A DNA stretch of 64,000 bases. Source: Octopus sinensis (taxonomy: Eukaryota). Shown one piece after another: positions 2,993 through 64,000 of the stretch. The translations under genes were made by a program, and so were the position numbers. Below the pieces are notes generated by a model. It was given only the letters and a program-made list of their open reading frames with translations. It was not told where the DNA came from and did no database searches. The DNA lies in assembly GCF_006345805.1 (NCBI RefSeq), contig NC_043008.1, positions 23,746,001-23,810,000 of the forward strand, given 5' to 3'. Positions within the stretch are counted from its first letter, which is position 1. Each line of letters begins with the position of its first letter.

Positions 2993-4069
2993 CAACATTT
3001 GCGTTAGTGTATGTATGTGTATATATTTCTATATTCATGTTGTGGGGATAGCTGTTATGATAACCAATCTTCTATCTTTTCCGTTGTAGATATATCGTTC
3101 CTACATCATCAACCCTATTAATGCATTTACTTTGATGTTTCAACTTATATAACCTTTTCGTTGTATTTTTGTTTTGTAACGTTGTTTTATAATAACGCAA
3201 TCTTTGACTTCTTGAAAAAATATACCATGCCGTTTATAGAATTGTTATTGTGATCAAATACTTTCTTTCACATACAACAATTTTTCCGTTTCATTTCATA
3301 GAGCAATATCTTCCATATTTTTGTTTTAGCCAATCACACTACCCACTGAAGTGGCTGACACGTTGTAACAAATTTAGCTTGGATTTTTATTGATTGCGGA
3401 AGTAACGCGCTCACCTCCTAAGTACCTCATTTTCAAATGTCATGCAGCAAGAAAACCTAGAAGTGTCCTTATGCTATAAAGTAATGAAAAACTAGAAAGA
3501 AAACAGCAAATGCCAATCTGTAAAATGCTAATAATAAGCTGATATCAACATGAACAAATACTAGTTTCATTGCTAATAATTCTGTTGTGGTTCTTGTGAT
3601 TATAATCATCATCATCATCATTATTATTATTGTTGTTGTTTCCTTTCCGTATTTTGCCGCCGCGGTGAGACGACGTTGAAGTGTTCTCTCCAGCACACTC
3701 TGAGGAGCAAGTGCAACGCCTCACGGGTCTGTCACGAATTTAGGCTTGGCTAAAGAAAACCAAAGTACTGGGTCAAAGTGTCAAGCGCTCCACAATTACT
3801 ATCATCAACTACGAGCTGAAGGTAGTCCATGAAGTCACCTATCTCTGCTCTACCATCACTGATAACCTCTCCTTGGGCCCTAAGATTAGCAGAAGAGTTG
3901 GAAGAACATCCTTCAGATTTGGGAGGCTGACAAAGAAAACTGACCACAACCATCAAGGTTGATTCTGTAAGGAAGGATGCCAAAAGACCTCCTGCATGGG
4001 AACAAGAGCACAAGGACAACCTCAACTTCGTTTCAAAGACGACTGTAAGAGAAATCTGAAGTCAATATA

Positions 4070-54989: not shown

Positions 54990-55086
<97 letters not shown>

Positions 55087-55765: not shown

Positions 55766-57806
55766 TAGGCGCAGGAGTGGTTGTGTGGTAAGTAGCTTGC
55801 TTACTTCCCATGAGTCTTTGGTGTCAGTGTACGCATGCGTCATTGTGTTGTGCACTATAGAAGATAGTTGGCGGCGTTTAACCAGCGAAAAAGTAGCTGC
55901 TGTAAGGTAAGGCTTTTGTCTCTTGGATCCAGTGGGGGTTGTTGTCTGTGGTTATATTTTTACAAACGAGAAGTCCTTACTAGATTCAGGACTTTGGTCT
56001 GCTTGCAGTTCAGCAATATTGTTCACATTAAGTGAAAGTTATTTCTCATTGTGGGAAGTATAGTTTGGGGGCGTATCCTGCCACCAAAAGTTGTTCACTG
56101 TTTGTGAATAGTGTGTGCTTTTACAGCAACGTTTACCAATAATTAGAAAGCTGTATTTCAAGTGGAGCAGTCCAGGTTGTAATCGGAGTACCATAGGGCT
56201 TGGTGTACCTGAATGCCCTGAAGATTTTTTTTATATCTCTGGGGGTGTCCAATATGCAACGGTGTGGTTGCTTTCTGACACCCCAGTAGAGGCTCACAGT
56301 TTTGAGAGCTAGCCCTTTGAGGGTAGAGAAATTTTGTTTCTTCCCACTTATTATGGGAAAAAAATTGACGAGTTCCTGGGTCTGTGGTTTGACACCCAGA
56401 ATTGAACCCGAGTGGATAGAGAATACTATCCGTCGGGGTCTGGGTGGAAACGGAGCCAGGCTTCTCAATGTGAAAATTCTTCCTGCGGCTGATTGGGTTG
56501 GGTCAAAGCTGTTTTGACCCTGTGGATCCAATCAGCCATGAATCTGGTTATGCTAGATTTTTTGAAAATGGCCGGGTGCAGGTACCCGGTGATTCTTGAA
56601 GGTCGCCCCGCACCAGGTGTCATCGATGCCTGGAGCCTGGCCTTATAAAGGAAAACTGGCCTCAGGAACAAAACAAAGTCCTGGAGAATTTAATTGAGAC
56701 CTCTGTAGAAGAAGGATCGAAGGAGGTCGAGGAGGCGGAGGACTCCTCAAAGAAGGGCCGCAAGAGGAAGAAGGTGAGCAATAATGGGTGCTCACCAAAG
56801 GATCCTAGGGATCAGGGAGGGGAGGCGAGGCGAATCTCCCGGTCACGGAGGAGACGCACCCTCCCTCAATTGAGAAGAAAAAAGAGGAAGAGGAACGGGA
56901 CATTGCCGGCAGTTGGTGACATAGCACCGGACTGTCCCGGAACCTTGCCGGTAGGGGTTGTGCCGTCGGCAATGGAAGAGGCACCATTGGAGGTAATTGT
57001 GCCGCCAATGGTAGAATTGACTACCTCGAACCGGAGGAAGACGAACTATTGGTCTTTTTCTACAGAGGTGGAGAGGTAGAAGAGGTGGTGGAAAAGCATC
57101 ATAAGGGAGTACCTTTCACCTTCACACAGGATCCAGAATGGCCTGTGTAGATAGCTGTGGAGGTCATAACGTTGCCCGTGATGCGTAGGCTGGAGGGACT
57201 TAATGAGGAATATCGCTAGTGGCCGGGCGACGCCGACTCGGAGCCCGTCTTGGTCTTGAATGAGGCGTGGGTGATGGCGGAGTATACGGGCACAAGCGAT
57301 GTTGGGGAGTAATAGTGACAAAAGGTTGAAAAACCTCAGTGTTATAATGTTTATTGTATAATGTTAAATGTTTATTGTATTTTATTGTGTTTAAGAGGCT
57401 TAACGCCCCAATTTTTAAATGGACTATTAAGTCCAATAATTGTAAACTGAAGTAAGAGGTTCAATATCTCGTATTGTCTTTTTTTTTGTGAAAAAAAAGA
57501 GAGAAGAGAATAATGTTTTAGAGAAGCAAAATATGGGCGGGCATTTTTTGTCTTCTCCCATTAATATCATCCTTTTTTCATCCCTCACCTCATTAATGCT
57601 TTTCTCCGGCCCGCAAGCTACTCTGTGTCATGCCTTCATGGCAAAATCTTTGAAATAAAGTAGCTTGCTTACAAACCACGTGGTTTCGGGTTCAGTTCCA
57701 CTGTGTGGCACGTTGGGCAAGTGTCTTCTACTATAGCCTCGGGCCAACCAAAGCCTTGTGAGTGGATTTTGAAGACGGAAACTGAAAGAAGCCCGTTGTA
57801 TTTACG

Positions 57807-57846
<40 letters not shown>

Positions 57847-58070
57847 GTGTGTGTGTGTGTGTGTGTGTTCGTGTGTCTGTGTTTGTCACCCCAACATCAC
57901 TTGACAACCGATGTTGGTGTTTACGTCCTCGTAACTTAGCGGTTCGGCATAAGAATCCGATAGAATAACTACTAAGCTTACAAAGAATAAGTCCTAGAAT
58001 TGATTTGCTCGACTGAAGGCGATGCTTCAGCATGGCCGCAGTCAAATGTCTGAAACAAGTAAAAGAATCA
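55766..58070 (+). mobile_element. tRNA-derived SINE split by a 1.85-kb insertion
   Basis: Head aggcgcaggagtggttgtgtggtaag at ~55766 resumes at 57673 with B-box-like gggttcagttcc and gttgggcaagtgtctt; internal (TA)n(TG)n; tail gaaacaagtaaaaga. Confidence 0.88.
55805..57657 (+). mobile_element. ORF1-only (Gag-like) retroposon with 15-bp TSD
   Basis: TSD aagtagcttgcttac at 55790-55804 and 57658-57672; decayed ORF1 with GVQYATVWL and YPVILEGR..CHRC; AATAAA at the 3' junction; no RT. Confidence 0.75.
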
Positions 58071-58764
58071 AAAGAGAGTAATTAATTTATTTTCAATTTA
58101 ATTTTGCATAGTCTGCTAATTTATATCCCCCAAATTGCATACTGCTATCCTTCTTTTAACAATTTTTACATTTCTTTTCAATACGCCAAACACATAGTTT
58201 GTGTATGTATGTATGTATGTATGTATGTATGTATGTATGTATGTATGTATGTATGTATGTATGTATCCATATGTGTGTGTGTGTGTGTGTGAACTTACTG
58301 TTAACAAAAGTTGGGATGCGTGGCATTCAGTTACTCATTAAATGAAAAATGCATCAAATACTTAAAAGCGTACACGTAGGACAGACACAGAAGGACCCTA
58401 ATTCTCTATCAGTTATCCACCAAAATACTAATAATCAGTTCCATGCCTTTAACGATTAGACTGAGAACTTCGTATATCGGCGGCACCCGCAAAGTTTGCG
58501 AAGAGTTAGGGCTCGAGCAGGCAAAACAATACAGGTTGGACGTACGAAAGTAAACAAATGTAATTTGAAACAATAGACGAAGACGGAATAAATACAGCCT
58601 TTCGACCAAACACGAGAGTGGTGGGTAACGCGTAGAAATCTTCAATGGATATTAATATAGAAATAGCAAAAGAGAAAATGTTGGCCGGCAAGCTAAGCGT
58701 CCGGTGGCGAAAAGGCAGAGATAAAAGGAAAGGCGAATGAGAGAGAGAGGAGAGAGAGAGAGAG

Positions 58765-59049: not shown

Positions 59050-59658
59050 CTATATTACTATATTACATCTCAAGGGAACATCAGTGGAAAGCACAGGTAG
59101 GAATTATTGGTTCAAATTTTTTGGGGCATTTGTAGTACACAGGATCTGCCCTGAAATGAACGGAGTAAAAGATAGAATAAAGGGAATAATATGAGTTAGG
59201 ATGGGAACCAAGTATGACAAAAATGAGTCTGGTGCTTTATTCCATGAGGACAGTTATCACGAGTTCATCGAGGCCGCTGGAGAGAACGTATTATATCACA
59301 GATGTCGGCTGATAGATCGTCCATCTCGCTTATTACGAAGATCTGATGGACAGAATAGACTATATCTAAAATTGTGGAAAAAGTGTCAAAAAAAAAAAAG
59401 AAAAAACAGTTAGCGAAATGTATTTTTGAAATTCTGTGAAATTTATGTTTTGTAAATTTTGTGAATTCAGTAGTAATTTTTGTGAAAACCATTATGGAAA
59501 AAGGCTAACGAAATGTAACCACCCGATTTCGGGGATCTTTTCATGACTCATTATTTTAAAAATTTTCTTCGTCTTATTTCATCCTCTTTTACTATTTTTA
59601 AGTTCCCCGACTGTATCGCCCCCATCTATATTTAGTCCTTTATGTATAATAAAGAAAT
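59050..59658 (+). mobile_element. probable 3' fragment of a related ORF1-only element
   Basis: KGII*VRMGTKYD resembles KGVIQVKLENGTFD of the 59677 element; tail tttagtcctttatgtataataaagaaat. Confidence 0.5.
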
Positions 59659-59676
59659 CATTCGAAATTTGTCCTT

Positions 59677-61265
59677 CGTGGTGTGCAATTGGTTATTGTT
59701 TGAGCTTTGCGTTTTGTTTTGTTGTTGGATTGTGTGTTGCAGAAGTTGTTATTGTTGAAAGTACTATTGTAGTTTAATTTTGAAAATTATTTTGTAGCTA
59801 CCCTTGCGGATATGTAAACAACGAGTTACGCACAGGCTGGAGGCAAAAGCCTGTCGGCCGACATGTTGCAGCTCAAAGAAGTATTAATCGAGAAGGAAGG
59901 TTTGAAAAAATATTTCGAAAATTTCAAGGAGGGAGATTGCTTGCGAATCACACCGCCTGAGGAAGACGCAGAAAAAGCGAGGAAAAAAATCATTGTATAT
60001 AGAACGTGGAGTGTGGCCAACAAGAAAATAGAAGTGGCAGAAACAGACGACAATGAGGAATGTCTAACGGAAATTAAAAACAGAACGACCTTCTACGCAA
60101 GAGGAAGGAAGTTCGCCACCGTGGAGGTGCGGTTTGAAAGTGAGGAGGAGACCAAGAAACCCGCTACCACGATATTAAGAACAGCTAGGTGGATATTTCT
60201 TCCGACCTATTGTGGAAAAATGAAGGTGAAAATAGGAAAGGTGCTACAGGAGATGGAGGTAGAGAGACTTGTAGCAGCTATAATCTACAATTGTAAGGAG
60301 GAGGTGGACATACTCAAGGTTGAAAAATCGAGAGACGTCAACTGGTGGGGTTATGGTATGGAAGCACTGATACATATAACCCTGCCAGATCTACACAACA
60401 TTACAGAAGAGTTGGTGCTCCCCGACGAAACCCGACCGAGAGTCGTGGTGGAGGGGAGACCACCAGTATGTTATAACTGTAAAAGAAGGGGACATATGCA
60501 AGCAAGGTGTCCCCTAGGAAAAGTGCAGGCAGAAGAGGAGGAAATGTGCAGCGACGCAGCGAGAGAGGATGAAGAAGAAAAAGAGGAAGAGGAAAGAGTA
60601 GATGAAACAACGGCAGACAGAAAGAGAACAAGGGTGGAGTCACCACCAAAAAGCCCAAAGAAAAGTAAAGTAGAAAATGAAGGAAGAAAGACAACAGCAA
60701 GTGAAAAAAGTACAGAGATTCGAACGCAGGAACTGAAGACAGTAACAATGAGTGAAGAAGGTAAAGTTAAAAAAGAGAAATGCGAGGAATGGATGAGGAA
60801 CGCGTTGGAGAGAATGCATTATGTAAAACAAACAGGATGACCTACGGGAGAGAATATAAGAAGGATAACATTTTATGAAAAAAATATGGCGATTGAAAAA
60901 AGATTTACAAAAACAAAAGGAGTGATACAAGTGAAATTAGAAAACGGCACGTTCGATCCAAGCGCTAGAGCGGTGTTAACAGAAAAAGAAAAAATAGACA
61001 AATTGGTAGAGACTTTTCAAGAGAAGAATAAAATAAGTAAAATAAATATTCGCTATGATAGCCTGCCCAACGTGATTGGGATGGAGGATGTCATCGAATC
61101 TGATAGATAAGTGGAACAGTTACAAAATGTATAAGCCATTCCATTTCCCATTACACATAACTCATTTCATATTCATTATTTGTTTTATGTACCCCAAATT
61201 TTGCATTGTTTTGTATGTAAATTGTAATGTCCTTTCTCTATATTAACCCGTCATGGGTAATAAAA
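59677..61265 (+). mobile_element. ORF1-only retroposon (~1.6 kb) between 22-bp direct repeats
   Basis: aaatcattcgaaatttgtcctt at 59655-59676 and 61266-61287; single ORF; tail aacccgtcatgggtaataaaaaaat. Confidence 0.8.
59812..61110 (+). pseudogene. L1/Tx1-type Gag-like ORF1 with CCHC zinc knuckle (~430 codons, two premature stops)
   Basis: ATG 59812, TAA 59815, ORF 59863-60840, in-frame continuation to 61110; SYAQA, RGRKFATVEVRF, VVVEGRPPVCYNCKRRGHMQARC. Confidence 0.82.
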
Positions 61266-61269
61266 AAAT

Positions 61270-62430
61270 CATTCGAAATTTGTCCTTTTTTGGATTCGGA
61301 CGTGGTCATTTAAGGACGGTAGGTTGCGTAGCTTCTTGTTTTACGCGTGTTTGAACACCTTGTTTCTTCTGCGCAAGCGAGTCCGTTGTCATTGTCCCCC
61401 TTGCTTGAGGGTGGGGGAAGCGTGTGATTGAAAAATAAACTGTGACGAAATTAGCTTTTCCGACATGGGTTAGTCGGAGGGTGAGCTAGTGAAGTACATA
61501 AATAGTATGGAGGAGGGATTGAGGAAGAGAGAAGCAAATGGAAAGAAGAGTTTTGCGGATGTAACCGAAACAAAAAGTCGAAATCCAGCAGTTATAAAAG
61601 TGTAGAAATATGATGCTAAGGGAGGGGCATGAAATAAGACTGACCCCTCCCGGCGAAGTAGTTCACTACGTAGAAAAGAAAAAGTGATATTTAAAACGTT
61701 CATCAAAAAGGGAAAATCCATTAACGTAGCAGAGAGGAAAGAGATTAAGAAGTGTTTGGCACCTATCTGATCGGATATAATACACCTGGCCAGGGGTGCC
61801 AAATTTGCCACCGTGGTTGTGCGTTTTTCCACAGAAGAGAAAGCCAGGCAACAGTCCGTAGCCTCAGTATCAACAGACGAAATAATCCTCCTACCCTCTT
61901 ACGTTGGAAGGCGTGCCTACAGAGTGAGGGTGGAGGAGATACCACCAGAGGTGGAGGAGATACCACCAGAGGTGTAGGTTGCCTGGCTGATAGCAGCGAT
62001 AGTGTTGGGCCTGGAGGAGAAAGTGATAGTCCTCCAGGCCGTGAGAGAGTACCGGCGAGAAACCCGATAGGGTAGCGCCTGGAAATGGTGATCCAAGCAG
62101 CCCCAGGGACCGTGGACAATACTGTGGATACCATGAAGAAAGTTGAGGGTAATGGTGGCGAGCAGGAGGCCGAAGTGATTCAAGTGTGGCCAGATTGGCC
62201 ACATAAGAGCCGAATACCTTCCCCTCCTGCAAAAGTACGAAAAGTAACCTCGGTGGAGAACGCACCTTGACTCGAGACGCCAAAGGTGGAAGAAGACTGA
62301 GGCAAGGAACTGGGTGAACAGGTGGAAACAACAGAGAAATAGACGGAGACGACCAAAAGGAAAAACAGAAAGAAAAAGAGAAAGAACCTCACAGGTGATG
62401 ATGATCCCCAACCCGATCTATCCCTACACC
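61270..62430 (+). mobile_element. 5' UTR and decayed Gag-like ORF1 of a related element
   Basis: KSFADV, LARGAKFATVVVRFSTEE, VRVEEIPPEV; 21-bp tandem duplication at ~61930-61974. Confidence 0.7.
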
Positions 62431-62439
62431 ACTCTGCCC

Positions 62440-64000
62440 CATTCTCGGGCTGAGAATCTTCCAAGGGAAGGTGTGCCAGAAGAAAGTAATTCAACAACGC
62501 GGGTTGATAAACCATAAGACGTGTGGCCAGAACCCCCCTCCCCCCGAAAATAACCATAGCGAGGTTCCTTCCACAGTTGAATTGGAACAGTCAAAAAGAC
62601 TGATAGGCGCGAAGAGGACAAAGGTTAAGTGGCCGAAAGCAAATGACGCAGCGAGTTATAAAAAATTTGACGACGAGGTAGCAAGAATGACCAAATTCAA
62701 AGGCGACGACGAACAAAATCTCGAAAACCTGGCTAATACAATCTACCAGGAAGGAGAGAAAAGATTTGGACTGGAAACAACAGGGAAGGTAGAATCAACG
62801 ACAAAGAGAGGACAATCGAGGAGAGAAAGACGGATAACAAAGATTCGAGAAGAGAAGAAAAAACTCAGAACGAAATGGAGGGATGCAAAGGAGAAGGAAA
62901 GAGAAGGACTAAAGCAGCTATATGAAGAGATAAAAAAGAGGCATCGAGATCTGCTAAGAAAACAAAGAAGGAGGAGCAGAAGAAAGAAGAGAGAAAAAAA
63001 CTATCGTAGATTTGTGAACAATCCCTATCAATATGCGAAACATCTATTTACTGAAAGTAAAAGCGGAAAATTGGATTGCACGAAAGAAGAGCTCGAACAA
63101 CATCTGAAAGAGACATACAGCGACTCTGACAGAAATGAAGTACTCCCAGAAGTGCACGGACTGAAGAAATCACCTGACCCAAAAGTACCATTTGATTTGA
63201 GCGACATCAAATGGAAAGAAATGGATGAGTTCAAAAGGAAAGCAAGAGCAAAAAGTGCACCAGGGAACGATGAAGTGAGCTACAAGGTATACAAATATTG
63301 CCCGAAATTACGATTGCAGCTGTTTGCACTGATAAGAGAAATGTGGAAGAAGAAAGATGTAGCGGAGCGTTGGTGTATAGCCGAAGGTATCTATCTACCT
63401 AAAGAAAAAGAGGCAAAAACACTAGGCCAATTTAGACCGATTTCACTTCTATATGCAGACAGGAAAATCATGTTCGGAATAATTGCTAGACGAATCATAA
63501 GAATCGTACAGCATAACGGATACTTTAATGAAGCGATTCAAAAAGCAGGAATCCCCGGAATCCCTGGGTGCATAGAACACGCATTTTCCATCTGGGAAGC
63601 CATCACTTGTGCAAAACAAATGAAGAAAAACCTGTATATTGTTTGACTAGATCTTGCCAATGATTATGGATCTGTTCCGCACGCAATAATATAAACAGCG
63701 ATGGACTTCTTTTGGATTCCAAAAGATGTTCAACGAATGCTCATGTCGTACTACGACAACCTGAGGATGAGATTTACAGCAGGAAAGTTCACAACGGTGT
63801 GGCAACGGCTTGAAATAGGTATTGCAGCCGGATGCACTATATCAGTCATCTTATTCGTGCTAGTCATGGAAATGCTACTCAGATCTACAAACTGTGAGAA
63901 AGCTGTTACAAAGACACCATTAAGGGCTTTTATGGACGACGTAACTATATTATCGGAAAGTAGAGAAGCAGCAGAGGGAACGTTAGAGCGGTTGAACGAA
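62440..64000 (+). mobile_element. HERO-like RLE LINE, 5' part with RT, runs off the window
   Basis: GLRIFQGKVC zinc-finger remnant, KVKWPKAND, KARAKSAPGND, FRPISLL, QKAGIPGIPGCIEH, LDLANDYGSVPH, GIAAGCTIS, AFMDD; in-frame stops. Confidence 0.9.

Follow-up and report, generated by a model that had tools for sequence, protein, structure and literature searches.

A dead ORF1-only retroposon at a fixed SINE site in the genome of Octopus sinensis, likely copied in by the enzymes of an L1/Tx1-like LINE

The insert in the window and the family to which it belongs

The DNA analyzed here (the window) is a 64,000-nucleotide stretch of the Octopus sinensis genome (contig NC_043008.1, positions 23,746,001 to 23,810,000 of the forward strand). 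Near its right end, a tRNA-like short interspersed nuclear element (SINE) is split by an 1853-bp insert that carries the remains of the first open reading frame (ORF1) of a long interspersed nuclear element (LINE) and lacks the second (ORF2). The word AAGTAGCTTGCTTAC is present at both edges of the insert without a single difference, and the SINE parts on either side belong to one SINE in the same orientation (Table 1). In the uninterrupted SINE this 15-mer is present once, within the word TGGTAAGTAGCTTGCTTACCAACCAC, which occurs 32,260 times in the genome and not at all in the reversed control; the 15-bp repeat is therefore a real target-site duplication (TSD) and not a chance repeat. A split between the A and B boxes of the SINE is placed by eye only; ARAGORN recognized a tRNA neither in the interrupted SINE nor in an intact copy, and no Rfam family was found at gathering scores between positions 55000 and 64000.

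The window copy is an ordinary dead family member with an internal deletion, not a complete element. It has no long open frame, and blastx of the insert gave no match to a LINE ORF2 at E ≤ 1e-3. Relative to the natural copy of 2278 bp that was used as the full-length reference (L018), a 312-bp deletion has removed the start codon (ATGGCAAAAAAT..., at about position 705 of L018) together with about 60 codons. Among the contigs listed from four sequencing runs, which were dominated by repeat copies, stretches exactly matching the window copy came from runs X1, X3 and X6 and stretches of its left flank from run X7, and none of these contigs spans either junction. A preliminary description of this DNA, made from the sequence alone, had reported the exact 15-bp duplication around an 1853-bp insert, a decayed ORF1, the absence of a reverse transcriptase (RT), and a terminal hairpin followed by AATAAA; these features were all found as described. 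It had missed that the SINE is the family's specific target rather than an accidental landing place, and that a related ORF2-bearing LINE with a common 3′ tail occupies the same site.

Table 1. Features of the split SINE and its insert (positions in the window; UTR, untranslated region)
Feature	Position	Strand	Basis or remark
Target SINE 5′ part (head), up to insertion point	55768..55804 (start about)	+	Same head precedes full-length and 5′-truncated copies elsewhere
Left TSD copy, 15 bp, AAGTAGCTTGCTTAC	55790..55804	+	Word present once in uninterrupted SINE
Insert: dead, internally deleted ORF1-only retroposon copy	55805..57657	+	81–90% identity to genomic copies, common end
5′ UTR	55805..56231	+	Corresponds to L018 positions 1–572, with one of two 145-bp repeat units
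Breakpoint of internal 312-bp deletion	56231..56232	+	L018 positions 573–884 gone
ORF1 remnant, three frames with stops	56224..57300	+	Natural L070/L071 ORFs matched by blastx, E 1e-15 to 1e-52
Ruined CCHC zinc knuckle, CHRCLEPGLIKENW	56618..56659	+	H and last C replaced (translation)
3′ UTR	57301..57657	+	Last ~40 bases are the tail common with the autonomous LINE
4-bp stem-loop, TGCC-TTCAT-GGCA	57631..57643	+	Pairing and compensatory changes in aligned 3′ ends
AATAAA at 3′ end	57654..57659	+	Final two A overlap the duplication; (nearly) invariant in 55 aligned 3′ ends
Right TSD copy, 15 bp, AAGTAGCTTGCTTAC	57658..57672	+	Direct reading
Target SINE rest: body, internal microsatellite, tail	57658..58075 (3′ limit approximate)	+	By-eye comparison with other SINE parts

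The insert is not a single-copy sequence. A DNA search of the whole genome yielded 2704 first-look candidates (40 scored), 91 matches and 30 fetched loci. The fetched copies are 81–88% identical to the insert, none of them reaches past its last base, and no ORF2 was found in copies of the same family. Eleven of the 18 other copies with both ends measure 2220–2320 bp, and four that have one repeat unit only measure 2063–2162 bp; the remaining three are two internally deleted copies (1901 and 1950 bp) and one with a later SINE insertion (2691 bp). The modal family length is about 2.2–2.3 kb, and the modal length of ~1.85 kb proposed in the preliminary description has to be given up, the window copy being internally deleted. 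The repeat unit is a 145-bp tandem duplication in the 5′ UTR of most copies (query 216–360; window 56020–56164), which is present as a single unit in the window copy, L007, L010, L013 and L021. Internal deletions were also found in L004, L006 and L025. The family is built of a 5′ UTR and one ORF of about 410 codons, followed directly by the 3′ UTR. Its own 3′ 22-mer has 36 exact genomic occurrences, from which, with about 8% decay per base, we roughly infer a family of a hundred to a few hundred copies.

A second ORF1-only subfamily is represented by L070 and L071, full-length copies on the reverse strand that are both ~2190 bp long, follow a SINE head, and contain a single ORF of about 410 codons starting MAMKNNKLLEWEI.... 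From the ORF onward to their 3′ ends the two agree at 90% of positions, but their 5′ UTRs are unrelated, a pattern that suggests that the 5′ UTR was replaced.

The ORF1-only proteins are collinear, in an alignment designated A2, with ORF1 of the autonomous LINE found at the same SINE site (see below) and with those of the elements neighboring the insert in the window. Blastp against these LINE and neighbor proteins gave 27–31% identity with E values of 1e-10 to 2e-17 in a small database; for the LINE ORF1 itself, blastp gave an E value of 1e-10 and blastx values as low as 2e-13, again in small databases. The motif pairs that the preliminary description had set side by side align in A2. Direct blastp of the window frames against the neighboring ORF at 59818 gave nothing at E ≤ 0.01; the two are connected by way of relatives, the ORF of one of which, L051, matches a window frame (E 2e-25) and the 59818 ORF (E 2e-17).

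Ratios of nonsynonymous to synonymous substitution (Ka/Ks, Nei-Gojobori) were below 1 in 19 of 19 computable pairs (20 pairs, one with saturated Ks) and ranged from 0.10 to 0.69, with values of 0.10–0.37 between subfamilies and 0.26–0.69 among closer copies. Because dead sequence would drift to a Ka/Ks of 1, these comparisons of decayed copies indicate that ORF1 was kept by purifying selection while the subfamilies diverged. The relatives carry a CX2CX4HX4C zinc knuckle, CHRCLE(S/P)GHIKKNC, which is destroyed in the window copy. Pfam searches of the ORF1-only proteins gave only zf-CCHC at 17.4 bits, below the cut-off of 20.8, and nothing for a conserved C-terminal part (LVFFYRGGE...DPEWPPQ...). 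For the L071 ORF (265 residues), an AlphaFold2 model built on an 18-row alignment reaches a mean pLDDT of 60.6, with 72–87 over residues 21–100, and places two β-α-β-β-α-β units before the knuckle. The best PDB matches found by Foldseek are all tandem RNA-recognition motif (RRM) proteins: La, SFPQ/NONO, DND1, U2AF65, HuR, and hnRNP A1. The model provides a lead, not proof, that the ORF1 protein may contain two RRM-like domains. LINE ORF1 proteins that combine an RRM with a CCHC knuckle are reportedly of the type described by Khazina and Weichenrieder in 2009.

The SINE target and the LINE that shares it

The SINE is the specific target of the family. The SINE sequence from AAGTAGC onward follows 27 of the 28 copies whose 3′ end can be placed, the window copy included, the exception being L028. 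At least 31 of the 36 exact family 3′ ends continue into GTAGCTTG, 20 of them without a mismatch, 10 with a single mismatch, and one with two; one of the 32 scored ends does not. The 26-mer that marks an occupied site, AATAAAGTAGCTTGCTTACCAACCAC, has 309 genomic occurrences (157 forward, 152 reverse) as compared with none in the control; set against the 32,260 exact words of the uninterrupted SINE, this corresponds to one filled site in roughly 100.

An unselected sample, made up of the first 30 of the 309 exact junctions in genome order, was classed by blastx. All 30 3′ ends close ...CTCTTTGTAATGCCTTTATGGCAAAT...GAAATAAA, and the sequences upstream represent many families that are 68–86% identical to the reference copy or unalignable. 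In nineteen, ORF1-like coding sequence abuts the 3′ UTR (the ORF1-only build), and these fall into many divergent subfamilies. The C-terminus of a LINE ORF2 was found at five junctions (L033, L041, L044, L047, and L059), so that ORF1-only elements stand to ORF2-bearing ones as 19 to 5. The remaining six have no protein match (two stubs of ~150 nt, L038, L048, L055, and L056), and L038 matches the family UTRs at the DNA level. No element with a restriction-like endonuclease (REL) was found among the 30 junctions.

Upstream extension of L041 and L059 led to two elements of ~5.4–5.5 kb (L069 and locus B) that are 84% identical to each other, a likeness from which their age appears similar to that of the ORF1-only family. 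Each consists of a 5′ UTR, ORF1, and ORF2. In L069, Pfam identified zf-CCHC in ORF1 (E 1.5e-5, 25.3 bits) and, in ORF2, an N-terminal Exo_endo_phos (APE) domain (E 1.2e-12), RVT_1 (E 1e-25), and a C-terminal zf-RVT (E 3e-9); with the APE domain in front of the RT and zf-RVT behind it, no R2-type REL follows the RT. L069 and locus B end at the same SINE base as do L033, L041, L044, L047, and L059. Locus B is flanked on the left by the SINE head with AAGTGGCTTGCTTAC and on the right by AAGTAGCTTGCTTAC and the SINE rest, and L069 has the SINE head and a variable 5′ joint. We tentatively call this LINE L1/Tx1-like because human L1 ORF2p is the best match of its RT among solved structures (E 2e-33, as compared with 3e-17 for R2). 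The closest named relatives of its ORF2 are proteins of other cephalopods that bear no clade names. Octopus repeat papers list L1-Tx1 and Dong-R4 LINEs (PMC13282606, PMC8967140), and the L069 LINE may belong to one of their families.

Only in the tail do the ORF1-only family and the LINE resemble each other at the DNA level. Over the final 43 columns of the aligned 3′ ends, ORF1-only and ORF2-type ends are identical at 0.78 of positions (270 pairs), as compared with 0.31 in the 45 columns before; the ORF1-only subfamilies compared among themselves reach 0.81 in the same 43 columns. For the window 3′ UTR against ORF2-type tails the corresponding values are 0.75–0.82 and 0.33–0.44. LINE and SINE partners with a common tail are a known pattern (PMC4494074). 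The 4-bp stem within the tail is paired in 93.6% of 220 cells from 55 aligned 3′ ends, and pairing falls to 19–69% when the partner is slid by 1–3 columns. Compensatory changes were found at two of the pairs, with C-G replaced by U-A in seven sequences and U-A replaced by C-G and by G-C in one sequence each, and the covariation score was reached by none of 500 shuffles. The stem-loop is probably real, and we infer that it would form part of the tail read by the RT.

Several lines of evidence favor independent insertions into pre-existing SINE copies. The SINE head lies directly upstream of 5′-truncated copies that retain about 1600 nt (L002), 710 nt (L060), 340 nt (L044), 150 nt (L034), and 140 nt (L046) of the element. 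L002 and L020 each carry the same private base change in both TSD copies, and L003 lies inside a different SINE subfamily on both sides. A further ~210-nt 5′-truncated 3′ end of the autonomous LINE (L048:1171-1530) is flanked by a ~100-bp SINE duplication, with private variants common to both SINE parts. The 5′-truncated copy L028 lies outside any SINE within its own 13–17-bp duplication; because it moved off target in this way, the insert alone is the mobile unit. Over 25 loci, the distances between inserts show no correlation with those between flanks (Mantel r 0.005, a value reached in 831 of 2000 permutations), and divergence is higher in the flanks (0.182) than in the inserts (0.130). Two pairs alone, L007/L016 and L008/L011, look like segmental duplicates, their distances being small in insert and flank alike.

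The 3′ junction is constant and the 5′ junctions are variable: the joint may be direct, or contain 3–25 extra bases, small repeats of the element start, or a second diverged target word. In L007, L008, L011, and L026, copies follow one another head to tail with only 13–19 nt of target between them. A second diverged 15-bp target word (e.g., AAGTAACCTGCATAC) was observed between the SINE head and the element start in L010, L015, L026, and L069, which looks as if the source RNA began in the duplication at its own landing site.

Other elements of these kinds lie to the right of the insert in the window. A second ORF1-only family occupies 59675–61268 (about 1.5 kb) with an intact 340-codon frame at 59818–60840; it has at least five near-full genomic copies that are 85–88% identical. 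This agrees with the preliminary description, which had counted two RT-less families within 6 kb and supposed an old, diversified class rather than a one-off deletion. The latter view holds because of this second RT-less family and the many divergent ORF1-only subfamilies, found at 19 of 30 occupied sites, with an ORF1 that evolved under purifying selection. Other copies of the second family lie in a different repeated target, ...CCGGTGATTGTCACGTGC..., and more distant relatives in ...GGCATTCGAACGTGCGA..., and this second ORF1-only lineage also looks target-specific. Its 3′ ends (L075–L091; window 61240–61268; L031:2480-2505) have a 4-bp hairpin directly before ATAATAAAG, the stems of which differ and yet are complementary (AGGC/GCCT, ACCC/GGGT, GTCC/GGAC); these sequences suggest that a tail of stem-loop and AATAAAG may be common to the whole group.

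The second family belongs to a head-to-tail stack that extends over window 59540–64000 and L031:1-2530. Its members are a 3′ stub, the element of this second ORF1-only family, and one further (third) element, with the same ~20-nt word between them. The stack looks like serial insertion into one rebuilt target. The junction word, ATCATTCGAAATTTGTCC, was dropped as a candidate genome-wide target, having two genomic occurrences only, both in the window's stack. A long ORF from 62405 to 64000 and on to L031:1-1494 contains an RT (Pfam RVT_1, E 1.5e-7) and, by eye, a C-terminal CCHC and RPD...E...K restriction-like endonuclease motif and no APE domain; judged by these motifs, the third element of the stack likely contains a nested LINE of the R2/R4/Dong type. 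Another LINE lies immediately beyond the right edge of the window (L031:2530-8000), with an ORF1 of the same kind at 3015–3524 and, by eye, the start of an APE-type endonuclease at about 4000, similar to the beginning of ORF2 in the SINE-site LINE.

Mobilization in trans and its alternatives

We consider it probable that the insert is a dead ORF1-only retroposon of a ~2.2-kb family at a fixed SINE site, copied in, as seems likely, by the enzymes of an L1/Tx1-like LINE. The family is likely a HAL1-like non-autonomous retroposon mobilized in trans by this site-specific LINE. In the mechanism we propose, the LINE endonuclease would pick the site, as it is held to do in Tx1-type elements (PMC4494074), and the APE domain would introduce a nick into the bottom SINE strand at ...GGT/AAG.... 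The LINE RT would recognize the ~40-base tail of the ORF1-only RNA, with its stem-loop and AATAAA, and prime on the nick, and a second nick 15 bases downstream would give rise to the duplication. The ORF1-only RNA would be coated in cis by the protein that it encodes, for which two RRM-like domains and a zinc knuckle are predicted. Each insertion would rebuild the target on both sides, so that later copies could stack head to tail.

A number of points weigh against this interpretation or loosen its parts. The proposed trans-mobilization rests on a common site, a common tail, and similar age. ORF1 of the sampled LINE is only 27–30% identical to the ORF1-only proteins, so that the half-elements are not recent deletion products of that LINE and there may be another helper. 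All copies examined are decayed, and the family may no longer be active. The Ka/Ks values come from open stretches of decayed copies in local alignments, and Ks exceeds 1 and is saturated in many pairs. The structural lead is weak, with four of the five AlphaFold2 models below a pLDDT of 45 and Foldseek matches at E 4e-4 to 4e-3 and TM scores of 0.19–0.29. Compensatory events in the stem-loop are few, because seven of the nine compensatory cells, all U-A, belong to one subfamily, and RNAalifold on the 55 3′ ends predicts two of the four stem pairs at a negligible energy (−0.17 kcal/mol). Finally, five 5′-truncated copies (L012, L014, L017, L022, and L030) have the SINE rest downstream and no SINE head; their missing 5′ parts were not found within 8 kb upstream, nor was a convincing duplication around the copy and its SINE rest. 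Target deletion at integration or later rearrangement is possible in these five cases.

The five headless copies bear on the proposal that the composite of SINE head, insert, and SINE rest was multiplied as a unit, by retroposition from the SINE tail or by segmental duplication, so that the TSD would be inherited and the site specificity illusory. Such a history would also explain why both flanks are common to nearly all copies and why L007/L016 and L008/L011 resemble segmental duplicates. It is at odds, however, with the SINE head kept by 5′-truncated copies of five lengths, with the movement of L028 without any SINE part and within its own duplication, and with the tandem copies that have only target between them. 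Nor do duplications flank the copy plus SINE rest in the five odd cases, flank distances follow insert distances, or the flanks show the lower divergence, and elements unrelated to the family, the 5.4-kb LINE among them, sit at the same base. The composite is largely refuted, and we give it next to no chance. We regard it as extremely unlikely that the copies form no self-standing family, each being a full LINE that lost ORF2 through a deletion of its own or the product of a full-length LINE transcript polyadenylated early. An ORF1- and ORF2-bearing LINE with the same tail does occupy the site and internal deletions are common, as in the window copy, L004, L006, and L025, but 11 of the 18 other two-ended copies fall into one length class with the same joint of ORF1 to 3′ UTR, and a second subfamily, with elements of ~2190 bp, is built alike. 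The low ORF1 identity to the LINE, the restriction of DNA likeness to the tail, and the divergence of ORF1-only subfamilies under selection argue in the same direction.

The copies might instead be processed retrocopies of one or a few host genes derived (domesticated) from a LINE ORF1 and taken up by the LINE machinery, which would suit an ORF under purifying selection and elements with a defined 5′ end and a 3′-terminal AATAAA. This is very unlikely given the many subfamilies, each with its own copies, the exchange of 5′ UTRs between close relatives, and the use of both the LINE's specific site and its own recognition tail; no intron-bearing parent turned up, although no dedicated search for one was made. 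Closer to our interpretation is the same site-specific family served by a different helper, either an unsampled L1/Tx1-like lineage or an REL LINE like that from 62405 on. The distant ORF1 of the sampled LINE and the finding of only one autonomous family among the 30 junctions allow for this, and site-specific R2-type elements are also known (PMC4640811, PMC5035012). We judge it unlikely: the sampled LINE has the exact site and tail in common with the family, a 15-bp duplication and common tail need no second enzyme, and none of the 30 junctions at the SINE site held an REL-type element.

A broader reading can be offered tentatively, as one that we find somewhat more doubtful than not: the elements may form a guild of diverse coding half-LINEs that are parasitic on one site-specific LINE, with an ORF1 long under selection, a roughly 4:1 excess over the partner, and an inherited aim. 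That aim would be a single 15-bp word of the genome's commonest SINE. The ORF1 protein would act strictly in cis, and target choice and copying would be left to a borrowed ORF2 protein that reads only the ~40-base tail. The SINE would then be a harmless landing pad rebuilt each time, so that copies stack, and RNAs could carry a target-derived leader that may help the joining of 5′ ends. If mobilization in trans by the LINE is correct, the family offers a natural system for studying the role of the ORF1 protein when an RNA borrows ORF2p (cis preference), the minimal tail length in RT recognition, and the reading of a 15-bp word by a LINE endonuclease. For annotation, SINE-insert-SINE composites and head-to-tail stacks can pass for new long repeats or tandem genes.

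Relation to known retroposon systems

Mammalian HAL1 (half-L1) is a non-autonomous element that encodes ORF1p only, has been amplified as such, and arose several times (PMC5753468). The octopus elements resemble it in having a homologue of a LINE ORF1, no ORF2 throughout the family, and many copies with common ends and target duplications. HAL1 is derived from mammalian L1 and has no fixed target, whereas the octopus elements have a strict 15-bp SINE target. They differ further in their cephalopod host, in an ORF1 with predicted RRM-like domains and a CCHC knuckle, and in outnumbering their autonomous partner by 19 to 5. By analogy, the octopus elements would work like HAL1, and we do not file them as HAL1 by descent.

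The R2 and R1 LINEs of ribosomal DNA have a precise 3′ junction and variable 5′ junctions, undergo 5′ truncation, and stack at their repeated target. All of these traits are also found in the octopus family. R2 has a restriction-like endonuclease and a single ORF. The presumed helper in the octopus has an APE domain instead, and its target is a dispersed SINE and not a tandem RNA gene. Co-transcription of R2 is mentioned in PMC4494074. The family is also distinct from a SINE, being 2.2 kb long with an ORF of ~410 codons and no tRNA-like head of its own.

APE-bearing LINEs at fixed places in transposons are represented by Tx1-Mar, with its partner SINEU, in crocodilians and by Tx1L in Tx1D (PMC4494074). 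The Tx1 clade resembles the octopus system in having non-autonomous partners with the same target preference, and there too the independence of insertions was argued from truncated copies (PMC4494074). The partner of Tx1-Mar is a short snRNA-headed SINE without genes and the targets are DNA transposons (PMC4494074), whereas the octopus partners are 2.2-kb coding half-LINEs aimed at a SINE. In full-text literature searches and in passages of octopus repeat papers, we found no description of cephalopod ORF1-only elements or SINE-targeting LINEs. Mammals are known to have ORF1-only derivatives, and vertebrates to have Tx1-type LINEs with a specific target that their SINE partners share; the octopus case joins both kinds in a mollusc, with hundreds of occupied sites.

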